Source of the DNA: Candidatus Heimdallarchaeum endolithica
Lineage (GTDB): Archaea > Asgardarchaeota > Heimdallarchaeia > Heimdallarchaeales > Heimdallarchaeaceae
Direction: 5' to 3'
NCBI GenBank assembly: GCA_021513715.1
Contig: CP084167.1
Span: forward strand, 1,696,001 to 1,760,000
Length of the DNA: 64,000 nucleotides
The position numbers and the translations under genes were made by a program. The notes beneath the pieces are model-generated. The model did no database searches. It was not told the DNA's origin and saw nothing but the letters and a program-made list of their open reading frames with translations. Below, piece by piece: positions 2,961 to 61,345 of this stretch. Position 1 is the first letter of the stretch. Each line of letters starts with the position of its first letter.

Positions 2961-3220
2961 GGGAAAAAAAGTCAAGCACTGAAAAATTTTTAAATAAAAC
3001 ATTTAGAGCAACCTTTTCTCTTCGAATTCCCTAAAAATTGTATAAAGTTGACTGACAGTAAATTTTATATATCAGTCTAAGTCGAATTTTTACGGAAATT
3101 GTTTCTCGTGTGATAAAAGACAAGTGAAAAAACACAATTAAACAATTATCAAATAAATATAATTCTAAAATAATTATAATCTATAACACAGAGAAATAAA
3201 AAATTAAAGGTGAAAAAAAA

Positions 3221-6290: not shown

Positions 6291-7301
6291 AAGCATGTCC
6301 AAAAATTCTTTTTCACCAACTATACAGTCCGAAGGAGCAAAAGGTAGTTGTAACAGAGAAGAGAACTGTACAAGGTAGAGAGGATGGTGGAGGGTAAGCG
6401 ATCAAGGATGGGGGAAGAGAGAGTTTGAGGAGACCAAAGACGTGTTCAATACTACTACGATACTCGGGGTGATGATTATGATAAACGATACAGACCAGGG
6501 TAGAGACGATGAACTTGAACTATTGGTCCAAGGAGAGGAGGAGAGGGATAACGAGCATTACTTTTTTGGGGGAATAACAGGAAAAAAGAATGTTGTCTAA
6601 GAAGACCGACGATATTTTCTGTCCAGTAGGCACAGTCACCATAGAATCTCAAGAAAGGTCTTAAGAGTGCAGAAGGAAGTTTCTGCCATAGTAAACCGAA
6701 GACTTTACTATCGTGAGTGTTACTAGCAGAATGTGCTAGAGAGACTATAGCTCTGGAGGGTAAACCAACTATAAGGTGTATCTTCCAGAAAAGTTTAGTT
6801 GGAGGTTTTCTTTAGTGCTCCCCTTGACCACTTGAGAAAACGCCAAACAGAAGCTTGACGAATTTTAAACCCTGAACTATCCACCGCCATAGCTTTCAAC
6901 TCTTTTTTTCTCACTATTTCTCCCCCTAAATCTATTATCCACTGCTCTAAGATTTTACTTTCTGTCGCTCTCCACACAGCATGAAAAGTGGATTTAGAAG
7001 GAATCTTCTTCATCCACCCCTCTTCTATCAAAAAAGCGCATAGAGACAACTTTTCTTCTAACTTCCTCCAAGCAATTCCTTCTATTCTAGCAATGATCGC
7101 TAAAGCCAGTATCACCCACCTTTCTGCTATTCTTTTTCTCCCTCTCTTACTTTCTCTCGGTTCCACTTTCACCAGTTTCTTAAGGAAAGGTTCATTAATG
7201 ATTATAAATTCTCTTACGCTGTGGAGTTTTATGATCTGAAAGAAACTCATAATTCCGACATAAACCCCCATATCAATAAAAATTAATTTTTGGACATGCT
7301 T
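6291..7301 (-). mobile_element. IS5/IS982-like DDE insertion sequence, degenerate copy
   Basis: 17-bp perfect TIR AAGCATGTCCAAAAATT; 6-bp TSD TAACAA (6285-6290 and 7302-7307); highly similar to 51469-52472. Confidence 0.93.
6320..7271 (-). pseudogene. Frameshifted transposase
   Basis: Relative to the intact copy it has two 4-bp insertions (near 6799 and 6480) and single-base indels, net +7 bp. The ORF is truncated at 6795. Confidence 0.88.
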
Positions 7302-7368
7302 TAACAAGTAAGAAAGCAAAGCTATAATAAATGGGAAAACTTTATGATTATTAAGAAAAGATTCTATC

Positions 7369-7986
7369 GTGAGTAAAATGTTTGGAAACTTTATGAAATG
7401 GTTATTAGGAACTCAAAAATCAAGCCGAGACCATATAGTAAATCTTAAACTAACAATTCGTAGACTGGAAAGAGCTCAGAGAAAACTTGAAAGAGATGAA
7501 TCAAGAATTCAATTAAAGATGCGTACAGCAATTCAACGTGGTGATTTAGAAGGAGCCCGCCTTTATGCTACAGATATTGTTCGTTCTCGTAAATGGGTTT
7601 TAGGTTATCAGCGTTTAGTTTCTCGTATTAATGGTCTTATTTTTAAATTAGAACGAGCTGATTCTGCAGCTAATTTAGCTGCTGAAATGCATTCCATTGC
7701 AGGAGCTCTTCGACAAGCTAACGCTCAATTAAATGTTCCTGATTTAGATCATGTTATTCAAGACATGGAACGAAGTATTGATGGAATTGAGGATTCAACT
7801 GAAACAATTGAAGACGGAATTGATGATCTTCTTATTGCTGACACTGACCCTGCTGAAGTTGACAGGTTAATCGATCAAACTGCCACTGAAATGGGTGTCA
7901 GTGTAGGAGGAGAACTCCCTTCAGTAAGTGCTGTTGCTACAGACGATCTTGAGGAAGAGATTCAAAAATTAAGAAAAAAAGAGTAA
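7369..7986 (+). CDS. ESCRT-III, Vps2/24/46 class
   Basis: Snf7-fold helices, GDLEGARLYATDIVR and an amphipathic N-terminus; in an operon with Snf7 and Vps4. Confidence 0.9.
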   Translation: MSKMFGNFMKWLLGTQKSSRDHIVNLKLTIRRLERAQRKLERDESRIQLKMRTAIQRGDLEGARLYATDIVRSRKWVLGYQRLVSRINGLIFKLERADSAANLAAEMHSIAGALRQANAQLNVPDLDHVIQDMERSIDGIEDSTETIEDGIDDLLIADTDPAEVDRLIDQTATEMGVSVGGELPSVSAVATDDLEEEIQKLRKKE

Positions 7987-8000
7987 TATGAGGTGTTTAT

Positions 8001-8660
8001 ATGGGTATGAAAAACTGGTTATTTGGAACCAAACGCAAAGATGATGCAGAAGCTTTAGCTACACTCAAAGCTCAGATTAATCGTTATGAGCACGAGTCTC
8101 GTAATTTGGAGCGTCAAGCTGATGAACAAAAGTCTTTAGCAGCTAAGATGTTGAAATCAGGTAATAAAGCTGGGGCCAAGCAAGCTCTTAAGCGCCGAGC
8201 TATTTACATGAAACGTTTAAATCAAGTCCAAAACATGTTAATGAACCTTCAGAGTCAAATTGACAGCATTCAGACAGCAACTTCTACCGTTGAAACAGTA
8301 AAAGCAATGGAGTTAGGCACTAAAGTTGTTAAGACTAAAATGCAAGAAGTTGATGTTGAGAAAACTGAACGTGTTATGGATGAAGTTATGAGTCAACGTG
8401 ATGAGATTGAAATGATGACTGAAGCTTTATCTGACACTGCATTAAGCGAGAGCATTTTAGATTATGAGGATGATGTAGCAATTGATGATCAACTTGCTCA
8501 GTTAGAAGCAGAGATGAATCTTGGTAAGACAGAAGAATTACCAGATCTTTCAGATCTTCCTTCTACGCCAACAGAAAAACCAACAGAAAAAGAAGAAGAT
8601 ACTTCTGACCTTGAAGCTGAATTAGCGTCTCTTAAGAAAAAATTAAGCGATGACAAATAA
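8001..8660 (+). CDS. ESCRT-III, Vps20/32/60 (Snf7) class
   Basis: GNKAGAKQALKRR motif, acidic C-terminus and MIM2-like LPDLSDLPSTP. Confidence 0.92.
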   Translation: MGMKNWLFGTKRKDDAEALATLKAQINRYEHESRNLERQADEQKSLAAKMLKSGNKAGAKQALKRRAIYMKRLNQVQNMLMNLQSQIDSIQTATSTVETVKAMELGTKVVKTKMQEVDVEKTERVMDEVMSQRDEIEMMTEALSDTALSESILDYEDDVAIDDQLAQLEAEMNLGKTEELPDLSDLPSTPTEKPTEKEEDTSDLEAELASLKKKLSDDK

Positions 8661-8899
8661 TAATCAAATTCTTTTTTCAATTCTTTTTTTAAATAATATT
8701 CGAATATTGATTTTTTTTCTATTTTTTTAATGATACCATATAAGTTTTGAAATGATAACTCTAGTCTTTTATAGGATCCACTTTTTTGCTTTTTTCATGT
8801 ATAAAATTGATTTTAGAAACGAACAGTTTTTTAACGATAATGATGTTACTAGTTTAGTAATTCAATTAATATGATTATTCAATTAGAGAGGTTGAAGAA

Positions 8900-10045
8900 T
8901 TGAGCGCACAAGGACTGATTGAACACGCACGCAAATTTGCAAAAAAAGCTTATGAACTTGATAAAGCAAAACAGTACAATGAAGCAATACCACTTTATCT
9001 TGACGCAGCAGAAGCTCTAATGAAAGCAATAAAATTTGAAAGGAACCCACAAGTAGGAAAAACATTAAAGAAAAAAGCTGAGATGTACATTGAACGAGCA
9101 AAAGATCTAAAAGAAATTATTGAGAAAAAAGCTGAGAAGGGAACAGAAACAGGTTCAAACGAGGAATCTGACAAATTAGAAGGAGCAATTAGCGATATAA
9201 TAGTGACAGAAAAACCATCAGTTACTTTAGATGATATTGCTGGATTAGAAGAAGCAAAACAGAATCTCAGAGAAGCCATAGTTTTACCCCTTGTAAGACC
9301 AGACCTGTTTAGTGGCGCAAGAAGACCATGGAAAGGGATTTTACTCTTTGGTCCGCCAGGTTGTGGAAAAACTCTTTTAGCAAAAGCAACAGCAGCAGAA
9401 GTAGAAGCTACTTTTTTTAATGTCAGTGCAGCAGCAGTTATATCAAAATGGTTAGGAGAATCTGAAAAATTAGTTCATACTCTATTCAAAATTGCGCGTG
9501 AAAAGCAACCAAGTATAATTTTCATTGATGAAGTAGATGCTCTTACTGGTTCACGTGGAGGTGAACATGATGCCATGCGCAGAGTTAAGACAGAATTATT
9601 AACATCTATGGACGGTTTGTCTAGTTCTGCTAAAGATCGTCTTGTTGTTATTGGAGCAACTAACCTTCCTGAGTCAATTGATGGAGCTTTTCGCCGTCGT
9701 TTTGAACGTCGTATTTACATTAAACTTCCTGATTTTGAAGCACGTAAAGCTATCTTTCAATTAAATGTGAAAGGAGTGGACTTAGCTTCAGATGTTGATT
9801 TTGAATCTCTAGCAGAGATTACAGAAGGTTATTCTGGAGCAGATATTGCTATGGTTTGCCGCGATGCTATTATGACCCCTATTCGTGAACTTGATTTATC
9901 CGGAAACATTCATGACCCCAATATTAAAGCCAGACCAGTCACGCAAAAAGATTTTCTTGAGTCTATTCAATCAGTTAATCCTTCTGTAAGTGCAGATGAA
10001 ATCAAGAAATATGAAAAATGGAATGAAGAATTTGGTTCTGCATAA
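8900..10045 (+). CDS. vps4: Vps4 AAA+ ATPase with MIT domain
   Basis: N-terminal MIT domain, GPPGCGKT, SKWLGESEK, IFIDEVD, RRRFERR and C-terminal YEKWNEEFG. Confidence 0.95.
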   Translation: MSAQGLIEHARKFAKKAYELDKAKQYNEAIPLYLDAAEALMKAIKFERNPQVGKTLKKKAEMYIERAKDLKEIIEKKAEKGTETGSNEESDKLEGAISDIIVTEKPSVTLDDIAGLEEAKQNLREAIVLPLVRPDLFSGARRPWKGILLFGPPGCGKTLLAKATAAEVEATFFNVSAAAVISKWLGESEKLVHTLFKIAREKQPSIIFIDEVDALTGSRGGEHDAMRRVKTELLTSMDGLSSSAKDRLVVIGATNLPESIDGAFRRRFERRIYIKLPDFEARKAIFQLNVKGVDLASDVDFESLAEITEGYSGADIAMVCRDAIMTPIRELDLSGNIHDPNIKARPVTQKDFLESIQSVNPSVSADEIKKYEKWNEEFGSA

Positions 10046-10057
10046 AGAGGTGATTAT

Positions 10058-10858
10058 ATGGCTACAATGGAAAAACAAAAAGATAATGAATTCGAGCAAA
10101 TTAATCTTGAAAAATTAAAAGAAGAAAAAAAAATATCAGAGGATAAACTTAAGCTTATTGAAGCTAGTATTAAAGGATTAAAAGTTTCAGAAGAAGAACT
10201 GAAGTCCACGAAACCTATCGTTAGAGAGGAAGCAAGATTAGAGCTAACAGAAGACACAAAGATTAGGCTAATTAAAGAATTTGAGCAAAGTTTACCTGAT
10301 TGGGTTAACAAGCCTTGGATGTATGTTACTCCAAAAAAGGCAAACCAAGTTGAGTCATGGTTAGATAGTTGGTCATCAGTCATGCTTGATTACACAAAGA
10401 GATTCGTCATCCATATTGTAAATGTCAATTCTCTTAGAGAGACTTATCCTTTTAGCAATAAGAAAATAAAAAAAGAACTAACAATTGATCAGATTCGTGA
10501 TATCATCGATTTTCTTGAAACAAAGGGATTTGCTCTTTGGATAAACGATAGAACTAAATTCTTTGAAAAACTTTTGGCAAAAATACTTGGAAAGCCTTTA
10601 ACTAAAAAGATTCGTGCAAAGATTGAATGGAAAACAAAGGAAGAATTTGCTGAAGATTTACTTAAATGGATGATTGAAACAGGAAGAGTGGTTGAAGTTC
10701 ACTCTTTATATGACTTAACAAGATATGAACAACCTTGGTCTTCCTTACCTTCTGATGATTTAATCAACGTATGTAATTTACTTGTAGAAAAAGGATCAGC
10801 TAGATGGTTAAATAGAGAAAAAACAATAATTGCTTTCGAAGCGACCAAAGTTTTTTAA
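10058..10858 (+). CDS. ESCRT-II Vps25-like protein
   Basis: PWMYVTP...SWLDSWSS...YPFSNKKIKKELT and WKTKEEFAEDLLKWM match the Vps25 tandem winged helices; ESCRT operon context. Confidence 0.82.
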   Translation: MATMEKQKDNEFEQINLEKLKEEKKISEDKLKLIEASIKGLKVSEEELKSTKPIVREEARLELTEDTKIRLIKEFEQSLPDWVNKPWMYVTPKKANQVESWLDSWSSVMLDYTKRFVIHIVNVNSLRETYPFSNKKIKKELTIDQIRDIIDFLETKGFALWINDRTKFFEKLLAKILGKPLTKKIRAKIEWKTKEEFAEDLLKWMIETGRVVEVHSLYDLTRYEQPWSSLPSDDLINVCNLLVEKGSARWLNREKTIIAFEATKVF

Positions 10859-22936: not shown

Positions 22937-23094
22937 TTTTTAAATAAAAAGGAATGATGCTATTTGAGGACTAATGAGTATAGGTGAATTTGTTCCGAAC
23001 TTGCAGTAGCAACATTGTTTTACTTAGGAGTAGGAACAACACCTCAAAGAGTCTTTTTTTCTATGAGAAAAAATATGAGAAGGATGTGAAATAG
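22937..23094 (+). promoter_or_regulatory. proS leader: TATA, hairpin, Pro-sensing uORF and +1-frame coupling ORF
   Basis: TTTTTAAA at 22937-22944; stems TTTGAGG/CCTCAAA and TTGTTCC/GGAACAA; +1 frame open to TAG at 23092-23094, abutting the proS ATG. Confidence 0.75.
22974..23009 (+). CDS. Leader peptide MSIGEFVPNLQ
   Basis: ATG AGT ATA GGT GAA TTT GTT CCG AAC TTG CAG TAG; Pro codon at the same position as the cognate codon in the thrS and leuS leaders. Confidence 0.7.
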   Translation: MSIGEFVPNLQ

Positions 23095-24531
23095 ATGTCA
23101 GTTTTTACAAAGAAAAAGGATGAACAATTCATGGCATGGTATCTTGATGTCATTCGAAGAGCAGAAATTGTAGATACTCGAACAGGAGTCAAAGGTGCTA
23201 ATGTACTCATGAGCAATGGATATGAAATTTGGAAAAGGATGCAAAACATCTTGGATGAGAAATTCTATGGAACCAATCATAAAACTATGATATTCCCTTT
23301 ACTAATTCCTGAAAAATTCTTAATGATGGAAAAAGAACACTTTGCAGGATTCGTTCCAGAAGTAGCTCTCGTTACTCACGCAGGAGAAAAAAAATTAGAA
23401 GAAAATTATGCTTTAAGGCCAACATCTGAAACTATAATGTATCACTTGTATAGTCAATGGATCAGAAGTTACACAGATCTACCTTTAAAAGTAAATCAAT
23501 GGTGCAATATTATTAGAATTGACACAAAAGACACTAGACCTTTACTTCGTGACAGAGAATTCTACTGGACAGAGGCCCACACGTGCCATGAAACAGCAGA
23601 AGAAGCAGAAGAACAAGTGAAAGAATCAATGTGGATTTATTCAACATTCTTTGATGAATGTTGCTTACCTTATTTAGTACTCAAGCGTCCAAAACATGAC
23701 ACTTTTCCGGGAGCAGAATATAGCGTAGCTTATGATTGTCCTCTCCCAGATGGAAAAAGTCTCCAAATAGGAACTACACACAATCTCGCACAAGGATTTA
23801 GCAAAGTATTTAAAATCAAATTTCAGAAAGCTGATGGAAAACATGATTTTGCTTATCAAACTTGTTATGGATTATCCACGAGAGTTATAGCTGCCGTAAT
23901 TGGTGTTCATGGTGATGATCGAGGGTTAATTTTACCTCCATATCTAGCACCAACCCAAGTAGCTATTATTCCAATTATATTCAAAAGCAAAGAAGAAAAA
24001 GTGCAAAAGATTAGTAAAGAATTATATGAGAAAATCAAGTTGTCTGGTATAAGGGTAATATTAGATGACGGGCCTAAAACTAGTGGTTGGAAATTTAATG
24101 AATATGAGCTTCGAGGGGTACCAATAAGAATAGAAGTAGGCCCACGAGATGTAGAAAAAGGTTCTGTGGTTATTGTTCGTCGTGATACAAAGGAAAAGAT
24201 CGAAGTCAAAAATGAAGATATGATAGAAGAGATACAAAAATTGTTTAAAGCAATTACTATAGAATTAAAACAAAGAGCCAAGGCCTTATTGAAAAAATCT
24301 GTTTCAACACTAGAAACTTTAGAAGAAATTGAAGAGAAATTCAGCACAAAAAAACCTGGTTTCATCAGAACAAACTGGTGCGGAAATAAGAAATGTGCTG
24401 AATATGTAAAAGAAAACTTCCGAGCTAATATTCTTGGTACAAAGTATGGTGAAGTAGAGCAAGTTTTTGGAGATTGCCCTGTTTGCGGTGAAAAAGCTAA
24501 ACATGTTGTGTATCTTTCAAGAACTTACTAG
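23095..24531 (+). CDS. proS: Prolyl-tRNA synthetase, archaeal/eukaryotic type
   Basis: LRPTSET, REFYWTEAHT, QIGTTHNL and C-terminal zinc domain ending SRTY. Confidence 0.97.
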   Translation: MSVFTKKKDEQFMAWYLDVIRRAEIVDTRTGVKGANVLMSNGYEIWKRMQNILDEKFYGTNHKTMIFPLLIPEKFLMMEKEHFAGFVPEVALVTHAGEKKLEENYALRPTSETIMYHLYSQWIRSYTDLPLKVNQWCNIIRIDTKDTRPLLRDREFYWTEAHTCHETAEEAEEQVKESMWIYSTFFDECCLPYLVLKRPKHDTFPGAEYSVAYDCPLPDGKSLQIGTTHNLAQGFSKVFKIKFQKADGKHDFAYQTCYGLSTRVIAAVIGVHGDDRGLILPPYLAPTQVAIIPIIFKSKEEKVQKISKELYEKIKLSGIRVILDDGPKTSGWKFNEYELRGVPIRIEVGPRDVEKGSVVIVRRDTKEKIEVKNEDMIEEIQKLFKAITIELKQRAKALLKKSVSTLETLEEIEEKFSTKKPGFIRTNWCGNKKCAEYVKENFRANILGTKYGEVEQVFGDCPVCGEKAKHVVYLSRTY

Positions 24532-29173: not shown

Positions 29174-29658
29174 TAATTTCTCACCAGAATAGTAAGCACG
29201 ATAGTTTAACAAAAAAAAAGAAGAACAATTTTAAAATCTTCCTACTGAACATAAGACAAAAAAGATAGTGATCTTATAACTAAAAAATATGAGTAAATAT
29301 TGGAGAAGAAACAAGAAAGAAAAGAATGAACTACAAAAACAAAGAAGAGAGTTAAAAAATTAAAAAAGAGATTTGAAAAAAAGAATTGTTTGGTTTAAAA
29401 ATCAGTGAAATTTTTAAATTTTATTCGAGAATAATTTATTTTAAATGGAAAAACAGTAAAAAAAGAGAAATAATAACAAATATGCAAATAATCCAAAAAC
29501 AAAAAATGGAAGATGAATTCATTTAAAAAGAATGACCTAAGAATAACAAAAAGTTTAATAACTTTCTAAAGGTAACTAAGGTCAGTAACCAAATAGGTTA
29601 GATTTGTAAAGACAAGTCGAAAAAAAATTGAAAAAACCAAACAATAGGTGAAAAATTT

Positions 29659-35019: not shown

Positions 35020-35144
35020 TTTTCATCTTTTGAGGACAATGAATCCTGGTGAATATGAAACAATACAGTAAAATGCTTTCTTTTGGTTTAGTAGTTTATC
35101 TTTGTCCTCTTGGGAAAAAATGTTTTAAGGTGGAAAGATGGTAG
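35002..35144 (+). promoter_or_regulatory. thrS leader: TATA, hairpin, Thr-sensing uORF and +1-frame coupling ORF
   Basis: TTTTTTATA at 35002-35010; stem GAGGACAA (35032-35039) with TTGTCCTC (35102-35109); +1 frame open to TAG at 35142-35144, overlapping the thrS start. Confidence 0.75.
35039..35071 (+). CDS. Leader peptide MNPGEYETIQ
   Basis: ATG AAT CCT GGT GAA TAT GAA ACA ATA CAG TAA; Thr codon at the conserved position. Confidence 0.7.
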   Translation: MNPGEYETIQ

Positions 35145-51468: not shown

Positions 51469-52472
51469 AAGCATGTCCAAAAATTCTTTTTCACCAACTA
51501 AACGGTCCGAAGGAGTAAAAGGTAGTTGTAACAGAGAAGAGAACTGTACAAGGTAGAGAGAATGGTGGAGGGTAAACGATCAAGGATTGGGGGAAGAGAG
51601 AGTTTAAGGAGACCAAAGACGTGTTCAATACTACTACGATACTCGGGATGATGATTACGACGATACAGACCAGGGTAGAGACGATGAGCTTGAACTATTG
51701 GTCCGAGGGGAGGAGGAGAGGGATAACGAGCATTACTTTTTGGGGGAATAACAGGGAAAAAGGAATGTTGGCTAAGAAGTCCAACGATATTTTCTGTCCA
51801 GTAGGCACAGTCTCCATAAAATCGCAAGAAAGGTCTCAAGAGTGCAGAAGGAAGTTTCTGCCAGAGTAAACCGAAGACTTTACTATCGTGAGTGTTACTA
51901 GCAGAATGAGCGAGAGAGACTATAGCTCGAGAGGGTAAACCAACTATAAGGTGTATCTTCCAGAAAAGTTTAGAGGTTTTCTTTAGTGTCCCTCTTGACC
52001 ATTTGAGAAAACGCCAAACAGAAGCTTGACGGATTTTAAACCCTGAACTATCCACTGCCATAGCTTTCAAGCCTTTTTTCCTCACTATTTCCCTACCTAA
52101 ATCTATTATCCACTGCTCTAAGATTTTACTTTCTGTCGCTCTCCACACTGCATGAAAAGTAGATTTAGAAGGAATCTTCTTCATCCACCCCTCTTCTATC
52201 AAAAAATCGCATAAAGACAACTTTTCCTCTAACTTCCTCCAAGCTATCCCTTCTATTCTAGCAATGATTGCTAAAGCCAGTATCACCCATCTTTCTGCTA
52301 TTCTCTTTCTCCCTCTCTTGCTTTCTCTCGGTTCCTCTTTCACCAGTTTCTTAAGGAAAGGTTCATTAATGATTATGAATTCTCTTGCTTTGTGGGGGTC
52401 TATGATCTGAAAGAAATTCATACTTCCGACATAAACCCCCACATTAATAAAAATTAATTTTTGGACATGCTT
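51469..52472 (-). mobile_element. IS5/IS982-like DDE insertion sequence, intact copy
   Basis: 17-bp perfect TIR AAGCATGTCCAAAAATT; 6-bp TSD TATATT (51463-51468 and 52473-52478). Confidence 0.95.
51498..52442 (-). CDS. DDE transposase
   Basis: AVDSSG (D), GDCAY (D) and RSSIEHVF (E). Confidence 0.92.
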   Translation of the reverse strand: MGVYVGSMNFFQIIDPHKAREFIIINEPFLKKLVKEEPRESKRGRKRIAERWVILALAIIARIEGIAWRKLEEKLSLCDFLIEEGWMKKIPSKSTFHAVWRATESKILEQWIIDLGREIVRKKGLKAMAVDSSGFKIRQASVWRFLKWSRGTLKKTSKLFWKIHLIVGLPSRAIVSLAHSASNTHDSKVFGLLWQKLPSALLRPFLRFYGDCAYWTENIVGLLSQHSFFPVIPPKSNARYPSPPPLGPIVQAHRLYPGLYRRNHHPEYRSSIEHVFGLLKLSLPPILDRLPSTILSTLYSSLLCYNYLLLLRTV

Positions 52473-53382: not shown

Positions 53383-56319
53383 TTAAAGGAGTAAAATAGC
53401 TGGTTTCATAGGTCTTGCTTTACGGGCTTTATTTTGTGGGTCAAAAACATCTTTTGTATCAGAAATGTAAGTTTCAACTGTTATTTCAGGGTATTTTTTA
53501 TTGATTATTTTTATATACCCTTGAATTGCATTCAATTGTTCGTCTGGAGTTAGCATTGAGATTCTAAAGATTGTTGGATCTTTCATCATTAATTTTGCTT
53601 CATCTGCGATATTCTTCATATATTTATTTAATGTCTCATGGTTTTTCACTAGAGACATTATTTTGCCTATATTGAAAGCTTCCTCAGCGAATGAATCTTT
53701 GGCCAATTTATATAACTCATTTTTCCATTGTGGAGCTATATATATGATCATTTTTTTAGGTTCAGATTTAACTAATTTCATAACCTGTTCTATATCTTTC
53801 ATCAAATTAGTCAAGAATTTAAGTTGTAATGCAAGTTGTGTGTCTTCTTCTGTTAAAATTATGTCTTCTATTTTTTGTAAAGAAACAAAACCTGTATTCC
53901 CATACCGTTCATATATCTCTTCACAAATGTGAGGGATTACTGGTGCCATCAGTATTATCATGTTTTCAACAGTCTCTTTTATTACACTTTGAACCTCTTT
54001 CTCATTCGAGTTTGAAGATAATTTCAAGTAATTTTCTAGTTCTCGGATATTATCAAAGAACCCTGATAATATATAGTCTCTTGGATTAAATCGTTCCATT
54101 GCATCAATTGCCAACTTCATGTTACGTTTTACAGAAGCTAGAACAATCTTAGATATAAACGAATATGATTGTGGGTCAATTTTTTCACTCTTTTCAACCA
54201 TTATTGCAAATTCCCAAAACTTACGCAATTTTTCTTTAGAATGGTTAACTTCCACTTCTCTCCAGTCAACTACAGACTCTTGTGTTGCTATAGAAGCTAA
54301 ATGTAGGCGAGTTAAGTCAACACTATACTTCTCTGGGATTTTAGCTATTGGAATTACGTTTCCTTTGCTTTTTCCCATTTTTTCTCCTTCTCTATTTAAC
54401 ATTTCATTCAAAGAGAACATCTGAGGCCAATATTTTTCTTGGAAAATAGCTACATGATGGAAAATAGTAAAGGACAAATGATTGGAGATATGTGCAATTG
54501 CTGTATGTCGTAAATCATTGGGATACCAATACTCAAATTCACTTTTCATAGCATTTATAGTATCAACAGAGATACTTGTTTCTTTAGATACTGTTTCAAC
54601 ATCGTGGTTAGAGAGAAATATATGATCGAATAATATTGGTTTTAATTGTTCTGGTTTTATTTTAGATTCTTTAATTGTCTTAATAATTGTATAAAATGCC
54701 ATGTAAATAACAGAATCACTTAGTGATTCTATGATCCAGCCTTTTCCCTTTGTTATAGGAAATTCTGTTCCTAGCCCTCTCTTTCTCACACATGGACGCT
54801 TATCTAACCAATTGAACACATTCTCAAATGCTTGACGATATTTTTCAGGAACTATTTTCATATTGTTTAATGCTTTAAATGCAAGTTCTTTCCATTTTTT
54901 ATTTCCATAATTTAAGAAATATTGGTCTTCAATCACCGCAGCTATTATTTTTCCACCACACCTACATTTTGCTTTTGTTGAAACCTCATAGACATTTGAT
55001 GCTAAATTCAGTTCTTTGAGCTTTTTCGCCACAGCAACTTTTGCCTCCTCAACTTTTAAGCTATTAAATTCTCCTGTGTTGGATTTCATCACTCCAGAGT
55101 AAAACTCTTCTTTATATATTGTCTGTGTAGCTTTCTCCAATTTTTCTATATCTTCTTGACTCTGAACACCCATCTTTTCATATATTTCTACTGCAGGAAA
55201 CTCACCATACCCATCTAATTTAATTAAAGAGATTGGGATAATACTTTTTAGTTTACTTTCGTCCAAGGAATATTTCTTTATTAATTCTTCATTTTTTTGC
55301 AAATCTACCAAAGCCGCATAATCATAAGGCGCATGTCCTGGAACACTATATACTACTCCAGTTGCATGATCTGTATCAACAAATGTTGCAGGATAAATTG
55401 GAATAACAACTCCAGTTAACGGCACTTCAACTTCTTGGTCAAATAATTCTCTTCCCTTAAATTCTCTAGTTATCTCAATTTTATGATGTTGATTCTTTAG
55501 TTTACTTACAGCTTCAGATGATACTATCCAATTTTCATCATCTATTTTAATCTCACAATATTTATTTTCAGGATTTATCCAAACATTTGTTGCTCCAAAG
55601 ATAGTTTCAGGTCTGAAGGTAGCAGCAACCAAAAATGTGTTTTTGTTTTTTAATTTGAACTTAATTCCAACGAATTCAGAAACTTCTACTTTTGTTTCAT
55701 CTCCTGCATAAATATCATCCTCTCCAACAGCATTTTTACAGTTTGTACACCACAAAATAGGATATTCTCCTTTTGTTATGTATCCTTTTTCGTTAAGAAT
55801 TTTGTATTGCCATTCAATAAATTTGTTATATTCTGGATCACCTGTAGTAAATTCACGTGTATCATCTATTGAAAATCCCATTCTCTTAAAGTCTTCCATT
55901 AATTTTCCTGAAAAATACATAGCTACGTTCATCGGCTCTACAAATGAGCCAACAATTTCTTCTACTTTTTTTTCATCGGATTCGTAGATAGACACATAAT
56001 CTCGGTATTTTTTCCATTCTTTTTCATCTTTTTCTTTTATTTTTGCGGATACAGATAAAACAGGTGTTCCTGTAATATGATAAGCCATTGGCCACATCAC
56101 ATTAAATCCCCGTTGCCTTTTATAACGTGTAAATAGATCTCCAAGATTATATGTTCTACAATGCCCTATATGAAGAGTTCCGCTTGCATAGGGATAAGGT
56201 ACAGTAACAAAATACTTGGGTTTGGAATGGTCAACTTTACCTACAAATATTTTCTTTTCATCCCATCGTTTTTGCCATTTTGTTTCAATTTTACGTATTC
56301 CTTCTAAAAAACTAGCCAT
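53383..56319 (-). CDS. leuS: Leucyl-tRNA synthetase, archaeal type
   Basis: HIGH, ATFRPET (CP1) and KMGKSKGN motifs. Confidence 0.97.
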   Translation of the reverse strand: MASFLEGIRKIETKWQKRWDEKKIFVGKVDHSKPKYFVTVPYPYASGTLHIGHCRTYNLGDLFTRYKRQRGFNVMWPMAYHITGTPVLSVSAKIKEKDEKEWKKYRDYVSIYESDEKKVEEIVGSFVEPMNVAMYFSGKLMEDFKRMGFSIDDTREFTTGDPEYNKFIEWQYKILNEKGYITKGEYPILWCTNCKNAVGEDDIYAGDETKVEVSEFVGIKFKLKNKNTFLVAATFRPETIFGATNVWINPENKYCEIKIDDENWIVSSEAVSKLKNQHHKIEITREFKGRELFDQEVEVPLTGVVIPIYPATFVDTDHATGVVYSVPGHAPYDYAALVDLQKNEELIKKYSLDESKLKSIIPISLIKLDGYGEFPAVEIYEKMGVQSQEDIEKLEKATQTIYKEEFYSGVMKSNTGEFNSLKVEEAKVAVAKKLKELNLASNVYEVSTKAKCRCGGKIIAAVIEDQYFLNYGNKKWKELAFKALNNMKIVPEKYRQAFENVFNWLDKRPCVRKRGLGTEFPITKGKGWIIESLSDSVIYMAFYTIIKTIKESKIKPEQLKPILFDHIFLSNHDVETVSKETSISVDTINAMKSEFEYWYPNDLRHTAIAHISNHLSFTIFHHVAIFQEKYWPQMFSLNEMLNREGEKMGKSKGNVIPIAKIPEKYSVDLTRLHLASIATQESVVDWREVEVNHSKEKLRKFWEFAIMVEKSEKIDPQSYSFISKIVLASVKRNMKLAIDAMERFNPRDYILSGFFDNIRELENYLKLSSNSNEKEVQSVIKETVENMIILMAPVIPHICEEIYERYGNTGFVSLQKIEDIILTEEDTQLALQLKFLTNLMKDIEQVMKLVKSEPKKMIIYIAPQWKNELYKLAKDSFAEEAFNIGKIMSLVKNHETLNKYMKNIADEAKLMMKDPTIFRISMLTPDEQLNAIQGYIKIINKKYPEITVETYISDTKDVFDPQNKARKARPMKPAILLL

Positions 56320-56550
56320 TTTTACACCTCAATTCTGGAATAAAGAGCTTTTCTTTTCTATTGTAAATTACAGTTGCAATAAAACATGGTTCCATTATAA
56401 ATTTACTGTAAAAAGATTCTTTTCTAAAAATTCGGGAAACCTTATATCCAGTAACTATGTTAATAGAATAATTGTTTTCCAAGAAGAACATAGTCACCTT
56501 TCATCTTCTGGTCTCCTAAAAACAAAAAGGAGATATTAGTTAAAAAATTT
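56312..56550 (-). promoter_or_regulatory. leuS leader: TATA, hairpins, Leu-sensing uORF and +1-frame coupling ORF
   Basis: TTTTTTAA near 56547-56540; stems GGAGACC/GGTTTCC and GGTGACTATGTT/AACATAGTTACT; +1 frame (track ORF 56312..56497) ends in a TAG just past the leuS ATG. Confidence 0.75.
56460..56504 (-). CDS. Leader peptide MKGDYVLLGKQLFY
   Basis: ATG AAA GGT GAC TAT GTT CTT CTT GGA AAA CAA TTA TTC TAT TAA; tandem Leu codons at the conserved position. Confidence 0.7.
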   Translation of the reverse strand: MKGDYVLLGKQLFY

Positions 56551-59893: not shown

Positions 59894-61345
59894 ATGATGG
59901 AGGACGTCGTCAAAACCTTGAAAGTGAGAATAAAGAAGGAGGTATTGACGACGAGGAAGAAGGAAAGGTTAAGGAGAATATCGGGGAGAGATACGAGGAT
60001 AATAGAAAAGTATGTGAGAATAATACATCATAACAGAAGAAAAATATGTACTAAAACTAAAAAAGGGAAAATAAGGGTACACAGAGGAAAACTAGATGAA
60101 CTGACGCTAACTACTTCAAAAGTTAAAGAAGAAGAGAGAAGAAAGACTGTTCCTCACGATTTCAAGAAAATGTTCCCTTATTGTTCCCACAATGAATTCC
60201 AAGAGTGTAGAGATATAGCCGTACAATTATATGAGCAAGGGTATAGACCCCGTTCTACTCGTCCTCCAATAAAGAGAGCAAGAAGACAACTAATTAATGC
60301 AAAGAGGTTCATCCTTGTCCATTTACCTAAAGAGAAGAAGAATACTCTCACTCGTTGGTGGGTGGGGATAAGAGACTCGTTAGATACGTGGAGAAGAAAC
60401 ACCCCTTATCATCAGAAACTATGGTTACCTTTAGAGATGAGCACTTTCCACCAGAAGGAATTAAAGAAAGGGCGAATAAAAAGTCTAGAACTAAGATATA
60501 AACGTTCTACACGTGAGTGGTGGGTGTATTTCCAATTAAAAGTTCTTCCTTCTTCTTTTTATCCTCCTGAAGAAAAAAGTTCTTCTTCTCTTCCCCCAGC
60601 TGTGCTGGGAATAGATCTAGGGATAAACATTCCTGCTGCAGGAGTGTTACTGACCCCTAAAAAGAAATTAACAAACAAAGAAATAAAATTCTGGCATACC
60701 AAACAGTGGAATAGAGTCAATCATCGATATAAACTCAAACTTTCCCGTCTTCAGAGGAAAGCGGCTTTAAATGACCAGTCGGGTAAAAAACACCATATTT
60801 ACCGTTTTCTCGGTCTTCTCCGAAGAAGATATAGAAACGTTAAACGAGCTTATAATCACCAATTTATAAGTGAGGTTATGCAGACGATAGAGACTTATGC
60901 ACAAGTGTATGACCTTTTTGTCGTTGTAGGTTACCCTAAACATGTTCGCGAGGAGAAAGGAAAAGATAAAAGTACTCATAATTTTCGTAGAAAACTTCAC
61001 CAGTGGAATTTTTCTTTAGTTCTTACTCTTCTCCGTTGGGCATTGATATTAAGCGGTTTTGAACCTCACCGAATATTAACCGTGGAGGAAAGAGGGACAT
61101 CTTCTCACTGTGCTCGTTGTGGAAGGAAAGTTATCCGTCCCGTTAGAGGTTTAGTCCATTGCCCCTCTTGTGGTTATACTTTCCACTCTGACCTCACAGG
61201 AGCAATGAATATCGCTCGTAAATTCCTCGGGGCTCTTTTCCGTCCTCGAGGAACAACTATCACTGATTACCTCACTGGTCAAAGATACAGTTCTACTCAT
61301 TTCACTGTTTGCCTAGGGCTCAGCCATTGGTTGCAGTCCCAGTAG
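59894..61345 (+). CDS. tnpB: TnpB-family RNA-guided nuclease
   Basis: RuvC-I LGIDLG, VVGYP at the RuvC-II site with E in VEERGTS, zinc finger CARC/CPSC and RuvC-III HSDLTGAMNIA. Confidence 0.9.
   Translation: MMEDVVKTLKVRIKKEVLTTRKKERLRRISGRDTRIIEKYVRIIHHNRRKICTKTKKGKIRVHRGKLDELTLTTSKVKEEERRKTVPHDFKKMFPYCSHNEFQECRDIAVQLYEQGYRPRSTRPPIKRARRQLINAKRFILVHLPKEKKNTLTRWWVGIRDSLDTWRRNTPYHQKLWLPLEMSTFHQKELKKGRIKSLELRYKRSTREWWVYFQLKVLPSSFYPPEEKSSSSLPPAVLGIDLGINIPAAGVLLTPKKKLTNKEIKFWHTKQWNRVNHRYKLKLSRLQRKAALNDQSGKKHHIYRFLGLLRRRYRNVKRAYNHQFISEVMQTIETYAQVYDLFVVVGYPKHVREEKGKDKSTHNFRRKLHQWNFSLVLTLLRWALILSGFEPHRILTVEERGTSSHCARCGRKVIRPVRGLVHCPSCGYTFHSDLTGAMNIARKFLGALFRPRGTTITDYLTGQRYSSTHFTVCLGLSHWLQSQ

Follow-up and report, generated by a model that had tools for sequence, protein, structure and literature searches.

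The proS, thrS and leuS genes of Candidatus Heimdallarchaeum endolithica are each preceded by a short upstream ORF (uORF) that carries GGTGA at a fixed distance from a codon cognate to the downstream synthetase. Based on comparison with related leaders, this element is very probably a genuine complement of the anti-Shine-Dalgarno (anti-SD) sequence, constrained at the level of nucleotides and fixed in position. We further consider it likely that the complete cassette senses charged tRNA through a +1 frameshift at a hungry codon.

Leader cassettes of proS, thrS and leuS

The window, meaning the whole 64,000-nucleotide stretch analysed here, lies in a closed 3.33-Mb genome. Its three cassettes, and two initiation sites used for comparison, comprise the following features.

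22938..22946, + strand: TATA-like box 5' of the proS uORF, putative promoter
22966..22969, + strand: GAGG, initiation SD of the uORF in the proS leader
22974..23009, + strand: uORF upstream of proS, zero frame, MSIGEFVPNLQ* (11 residues)
22982..22987, + strand: internal Shine-Dalgarno (A)GGTGA of the proS cassette, with its U at -7 from the P-site codon
22989..22991, + strand: E-site codon TTT of the proS cassette; third base a pyrimidine in 96/97 homologues, amino acid free
22992..22995, + strand: slippery site GTT-C of the proS cassette, where tRNA-Val would re-pair from GUU to UUC (+1)
22995..22997, + strand: sensor codon CCG (Pro), matching the ProRS encoded downstream; 3% of this genome's Pro codons
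22993..23094, + strand: +1 frame of the proS leader, without a stop from the slip site until the TAG immediately 5' of the proS ATG
23033..23060, + strand: predicted 3' arm pairing with the proS uORF and with the initiation SD of that uORF; a T7 tract comes next
23095..24531, + strand: proS, prolyl-tRNA synthetase
35039..35071, + strand: thrS uORF, with internal SD 35048-35052, slip site GAA-A 35057-35060 and sensor ACA 35060-35062
End at 35144, + strand: thrS +1 frame, running over the thrS ATG (35138)
56460..56504, - strand: leuS uORF, with internal SD 56498-56494, slip site GTT-C 56489-56486 and sensor CTT 56486-56484
End at 56312, - strand: leuS +1 frame, running over the leuS ATG (56319)
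3209..3213, + strand: GGTGA as initiation SD of the thermosome gene, 7 nt 5' of its ATG (3221)
29647..29651, + strand: GGTGA as initiation SD of the actin gene, 7 nt 5' of its ATG (29659)

Positions 22983-22997 read GGT GAA TTT GTT CCG and form codons 4-8 of the proS uORF. The corresponding codons are GGT GAA in the thrS leader and GGT GAC in the leuS leader, in agreement with the sequence-only reading, which had described all three as GGT GAN. Its distances also hold: in each of the three leaders, 4 nt separate GGTGA from the slippery P-site codon and 7 nt from the cognate codon, and the gap to the ATG is likewise 7 nt at thermosome and actin. That reading had further regarded GGTGA as the SD of this genome and proposed a comparison with the 16S 3' end, which proves to be GGAUCACCUCCU, complementary to GGUGA. 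In all three leaders, the +1 frame stays open from the cassette until a stop that abuts or overlaps the main ATG.

A fourth cassette of this genome is located outside the window, 5' of ileS (G000:C1:1827441-1827541, - strand, L247). It belongs to class C (see below), with the uORF MDREIH*, the slip site GAA-A, the sensor ATT and a +1-frame TGA directly 5' of the ATG. The same ileS motif is found in most family f1 genomes.

Elsewhere in the window, a cluster of two coiled-coil ORFs and an AAA-type ORF (7369-10858) resembles ESCRT-III and Vps4, judged by the translations only. An Rfam SNORD36 match inside a gene (7773-7847, E 0.7) is probably due to chance. Two near-identical transposase-like ORFs and one other mobile-element-like ORF, again recognised by translation only, occupy 6795-7319, 51498-52442 and 59894-61345.

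Constraint on the internal Shine-Dalgarno and the sensor codon

Leaders were collected from the regions upstream of proS, thrS, leuS, ileS, valS and serS in 61 related genomes. Detection was blind to the SD and required a start codon, a slip-compatible P codon, a cognate A codon and a +1 frame reaching the start. Removal by hand of non-homologous singletons left 97 leaders from six Heimdallarchaeia families, f2-f6 being other families of the same order or class; these leaders are hand-curated from the SD-blind list and are kin rather than independent observations. The initial G-[E/D] pattern misses most leuS and all ileS leaders, a mismatch that revealed the non-Gly classes. Leaders were accordingly divided into class A (GGT GAN), class B (GGG or AGG followed by NAT) and class C (M-D-R or M-D-H, ATG GAT). 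Most leuS leaders belong to class B, reading G-Y-R, R-N-Y, R-Y-C or R-D-S, while the ileS leaders and the proS leaders of family f5 belong to class C.

All 52 G-[E/D] leaders, drawn from five families and three genes, use GGT, followed by GAA, GAC, GAG or GAT. Genome-wide, GGT accounts for 32% of Gly codons and for 25% of those before GAN. As a control, invariant Gly columns at the same loci were inspected: a single codon is used in 0/11 columns of ProRS and 0/13 of ThrRS (0/24 together), with a mean top-codon share of 0.5-0.6. The sequence-only reading had taken the G-[E/D] to be an internal SD rather than a peptide motif, and had named free synonymous variation of the Gly codon as the observation that would speak against this; no such variation is seen. 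The remaining 45 of the 97 leaders encode other peptides (G-Y-R, R-N-Y, M-D-R) and retain the anti-SD pairing. Since orthologous leaders change their peptide yet keep the pairing at a fixed place, the constraint appears to act on the nucleotides and not on the peptide, and the contrast between 52/52 and 0/24 bears out the internal SD. The same argument has been made for RF2, where alternation of GG_GGG with GG_AGG is taken, in the review by Atkins (2016, PMC5009743), to mean that the choice of 'Gly' codon is set by the SD.

The nucleotides are far steadier than the residues across the 97 leaders: every leader has a purine at -9, and 96 have A at -5 and 96 a pyrimidine at -1. Neighbouring codons are coupled as expected from the register, with GGT always before GA and GGG always before TAT. 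Anti-SD pairing of -5 kcal/mol or better is found in 40/40 distinct sequence windows vs 10% of matched coding sites, and in 90 of the 93 loci returned by a mechanical SD-blind rule. Of five relatives examined, three share the anti-SD tail itself. The exceptions occur in tandem arrangements, where three upstream cassettes have GGA or AGA; two of these pair best at -7 (about -4.6) and one barely pairs (-0.8 at register -7).

The slip-compatible P codon, NTT-C or NAA-A, is present in 96/97 leaders; it was a detection filter, but was also recovered in a search without that filter. With sensor, start and frame left free, every motif match that has both an in-frame ATG and a reaching +1 frame carries the cognate codon (89/89), and none of the 32 non-cognate matches has both. 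The -1 frame reaches the start in just 10/97 leaders, and a shuffled leader is open with a mean probability of 0.14. Leaders contain a single cognate codon, or two in most leuS leaders. In a genome-wide scan, which gave 848 structural candidates (29 with an SD), the window's three cassettes ranked 2, 3 and 5 and the ileS cassette 21, and no further cognate target was recognised. Sequence comparison thus establishes nucleotide-level constraint, anti-SD complementarity, a fixed register, a cognate sensor and an open +1 frame.

A proposed frameshift model and its alternatives

From these features we infer rRNA pairing itself, a shift, control by starvation and an output step. The proposed sensor consists of the internal SD, an E-site NRY codon, a slippery P-site codon (NUU-C or NAA-A) and the cognate A-site codon. 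GGTGA would pair with the 16S tail of the ribosome translating the uORF. When charged tRNA is plentiful, the ribosome would read through and end at the uORF stop. When it is scarce, the A site would stand empty and the SD duplex would keep the ribosome at the smallest spacing that it can bear. A step to -1 would squeeze this duplex, whereas a step to +1 would relax it into the normal range, so that the peptidyl-tRNA would slip +1. The new frame would then carry the ribosome to the main start, for termination-reinitiation, or directly into the enzyme where the two are fused, and the outcome would be higher output of a synthetase or biosynthetic enzyme. For coupled leaders, termination-reinitiation is the simplest output, and it has been documented in archaea at overlapping stop/start pairs (PMC6728339).

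The place of the SD was assessed by its register, which gives the distance of the SD U from the P codon. Any Gly codon makes G-[E/D] resemble an SD, so pairing strength alone barely separates GGT from GGA; free-register duplex energy fails to do so, and fixed-register energy was used instead. The best register is -7 in 30/30 class A windows, -6 in 23/23 class B windows, and -7 or -6 in class C. Initiation registers in this genome range from -7 to -10, with -6 rare (8 of about 180 GAGG starts, and never with GGTGA). A GGA variant would retain -6.7 kcal/mol and shift the duplex to -4, near the prfB spacing; 0/97 leaders use GGA.

It is possible, though we doubt it, that the same sensor uses its SD exactly as prfB does, namely as a spring under compression that would expel the E-site tRNA and weaken pairing in the P site. 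Base pairing comes to within 4 nt of the P codon in class A and 2-3 nt in classes B and C (where the duplex is bulged), the -6 register of class B is shorter than that of nearly all starts, and TAT, also the E-site codon of prfB, is the commonest E-site codon. However, the prfB motif places its SD at register -3, whereas class A sits at -7, the commonest initiation register here, and the GGA that would give -4 is missing from the 97 leaders. The short spacing that the sequence-only reading borrowed from prfB is therefore only partly upheld: there is an internal SD at a fixed place, but its duplex lies 3-4 nt farther from the P site than in prfB (-7/-6 vs -3), at the short edge of the initiation range. 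The position of the cassette SD appears to be selected, yet differs from that of prfB. A role in anchoring the stalled ribosome and steering its slip to +1 seems more likely for this SD than that of a strongly compressed spring; mild compression is most plausible in class B. The prfB SD spacing is 3 nt (PMC10798248; PMC5009743), although prfB shifting is able to run without SD pairing in some bacteria (PMC10798248). For E. coli, one study relates SD spacings under 4 nt to +1 shifting, describes 4-9 nt as initiation-like and relates 10-14 nt to -1 shifting (10.1101/2020.04.16.045807).

Conservation of GGTGA for pairing inside a leader hairpin, as in an attenuator-like switch, instead of with rRNA is improbable. 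A long hairpin and U-tract, though no conserved antiterminator, are predicted in the leaders; the uORF is the predicted 5' arm in all four leaders of this genome, the 12-bp leuS helix takes in GGTGA, and a run of 5 or more T follows the uORF stop in 72/94 leaders (a raw count with no matched background). Yet GGTGA has a confidently predicted partner in no more than about half of the class A leaders, remains constant while its partners vary (C, U or none), is left out of consensus folds, and recurs identically on unrelated genes and on leaderless fused cassettes. Given pairing in about half of class A, changing partners and persistence in leaderless fusions, the hairpin does not explain GGTGA. 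It may still shape the output by masking or termination. In the window, 3' arms at 23033-23060, 35090-35110 and 56430-56410 are complementary to the uORF initiation SD. Among leuS homologues this SD/3'-arm pair covaries, with GGAAACC/GGTTTCC against GGAGACC/GGTCTCC in L072.

Still less probable is that GGTGA serves as an ordinary initiation SD for a +1-frame start, an NTG spanning the E and P codons. TAT-G, TGT-G and TTT-G do create ATG, GTG and TTG in the +1 frame, and such a codon is the sole early start in some fused genes (thrA in G044, hisG in G040, proS2 in G052). It would lie at register -5, however, and GGTGA at starts is never closer than -7 except in one case at -3. Many homologues have no such codon (TGC-G, TAC-G, CGC-G, TAC-C), and the zero-frame uORF and its cognate codon would be left unexplained.

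An effect of the nascent peptide G-[E/D]-[F/Y] on the peptidyl-transferase centre, one of the alternatives allowed by the sequence-only reading, is already largely refuted and very unlikely. Gly at -3 (70/97 leaders) and Glu or Asp at -2 (62/97) are common, but synonymous freedom is absent, orthologues have R-N-Y, G-Y-R, M-D-R or C-S, and the chain is just 4-7 residues long at the stall. The [F/Y] part of the motif is not conserved at all, its position (-1) taking nine amino acids across the leaders. The other alternative allowed there, direct T-box-like reading of the codon by uncharged tRNA, draws on the presence of one cognate codon upstream of synthetase genes and can be set aside almost entirely, as the codon lies in frame at no fixed distance from the start, comes after a slippery codon and is present in fused genes, and the Rfam T-box model gives no match at its gathering score or at E up to 10.

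Distribution of the cassette and comparison with known systems

Besides proS, thrS and leuS, the cassette heads ileS, metS, hisG, thrA and a cysK-like gene, each with its cognate codon. A pattern with the sensor left unspecified recovered His codons at hisG operons (L298, L299, L301, L313), a Thr codon before the aspartokinase of a thrA-thrB-like operon (L304), a Met codon before metS, encoding MetRS (L303), and a Cys codon before a CysK-like PALP enzyme (L308), the last being uncertain, with a +1-frame ATG nearby. The same pattern is present with a Thr sensor at a 97-aa ORF (L302). Cassettes are either coupled to the main start or fused to it in the +1 frame, and some occur in tandem. In hisG, thrA, two leuS genes and the second proS (proS2) of family f6, it is the +1 frame that encodes the enzyme.

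Tandem cassettes precede the f6 proS2 and a Pro-sensing gene, the first +1 frame ending on the start of the second uORF. In the pairs observed (L130, L131 and L219 at the f6 second proS; L400 with L294 in G038; G043:C296), both cassettes sense Pro and the second is fused +1 to the protein; in the G052 tandem, the sole early start codon is an ATG inside the cassette. A fused Pro-sensing cassette also heads a family of 220-265 aa proteins in f3 genomes (L294-L297, L300), divergent from proS in G036. This ORF of about 250 aa has no Pfam match and no useful Atlas match, and we regard the family as a candidate proline-related protein. In many f1 genomes, a conserved uORF reading GGT GAA CGT TTT GTT precedes a +1-frame ORF of about 140 aa, with a methionine aminopeptidase-like gene also downstream (L291-L293, L351, L352). 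Here translation may simply begin in the ordinary way at a +1-frame TTG, which lies at register -8.

Within the loci searched, valS (21), serS (17), archaeal-type thrS (14) and the genus g4 503-aa ProRS yielded no convincing cassette. Inspection by eye of this genome found none at asnS, aspS, serS, glyS, hisS, metS, cysS, tyrS, argS, lysS, glnS or valS; alaS, pheS and trpS were not located. In other Asgard classes, none was found at the 18 proS loci searched, and a His/Pro class A pattern applied to 300 Asgard genomes found none among the 30 matches listed. A class B pattern search returned mostly noise. In many genus g4 genomes (L113-L127, L236, L237) the 503-aa ProRS is a different enzyme, about 40% identical, and leaderless. 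Several leuS genes of genus g4 (L071, L077, L084, L085, L088) lack a uORF because the upstream gene abuts; the leuS of L077 retains the 3' arm of the hairpin and has lost the 5' arm.

The closest known system is prfB, which encodes RF2. Shared features are an internal SD, an E-site codon that is often UAU, a +1 slip of the P-site tRNA from NUU to UUY, a slow A site as sensor and negative feedback. As in prfB, the 'Gly' would be driven by the SD (PMC5009743), and the fused proS2, hisG and thrA need the shift to make the enzyme. Unlike prfB, in which the sensor is a UGA stop in a release factor gene, the cassette has a sense codon reporting on charged-tRNA supply; its SD register is -6/-7 rather than -3. 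It is archaeal and modular, serves at least seven amino acids, usually takes the form of a uORF coupled to the main gene and at times stands in tandem. The cassette would work like prfB without being a member of that group, having a sense-codon sensor, another spacing and a modular regulon.

Other leaders share single aspects of the design. In the ermC leader (ermCL), a shift in the uORF sends ribosomes through the spacer and turns on the downstream gene; its trigger is a ketolide antibiotic and its target a single gene, and the accessible part of the review describes no cognate codon or internal SD (PMC5009743). Attenuators (E. coli trp, his and pheL) and T-boxes likewise use a cognate leader codon to sense aminoacylation for synthetase or biosynthetic genes, and hairpins and U-tracts are predicted in the cassette leaders as well. 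The cassette has one or two cognate codons where attenuators have a run; it also has a dedicated slip site and an open +1 frame that is conserved, and it lacks the T-box fold. Frameshifting at pheL has been judged incidental (PMC3082878; PMC5009743). In starved E. coli, hungry-codon frameshifting likewise takes place while the A site stands empty for want of an amino acid. A ribosome arrest peptide, for which conserved residues with free synonymous codons are expected, was also considered and rejected, the Gly codon being fixed.

We lean towards a class-wide regulon in Heimdallarchaeia of modular, SD-anchored hungry-codon +1 switches for Pro, Thr, Leu, Ile, Met, His and probably Cys, including direct fusions and tandem two-step cascades and using an SD spacing other than that of prfB. 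A literature search, with most subscription papers outside its reach, turned up no account of leaders like these, whether in Asgard archaea or in others. If the model is correct, the cassette would be a productive hungry-codon frameshift, of which none was known to the 2016 review (PMC5009743). It would also be a +1 programmed shift in archaea, for which a 2021 review lists only fucA1, a -1 frameshift (PMC8211752). Elongating archaeal ribosomes would then make rRNA-mRNA pairing, and the -6/-7 register would add a point to the SD-spacing relationship between the +1 of prfB and the -1 of dnaX. Gene callers are predicted to truncate or mis-start hisG, thrA and some proS and leuS genes in these genomes.

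The cassette offers a short, directly testable answer, in an archaeal class close to eukaryotes, to how archaea match synthetase and biosynthetic output to the supply of charged tRNA. From its sequence, it seems to let Heimdall (Asgard) archaea raise the output of a tRNA synthetase or amino-acid enzyme when the matching amino acid is short. If the class-wide regulon is real, it would be an archaeal counterpart of T-boxes and attenuators.
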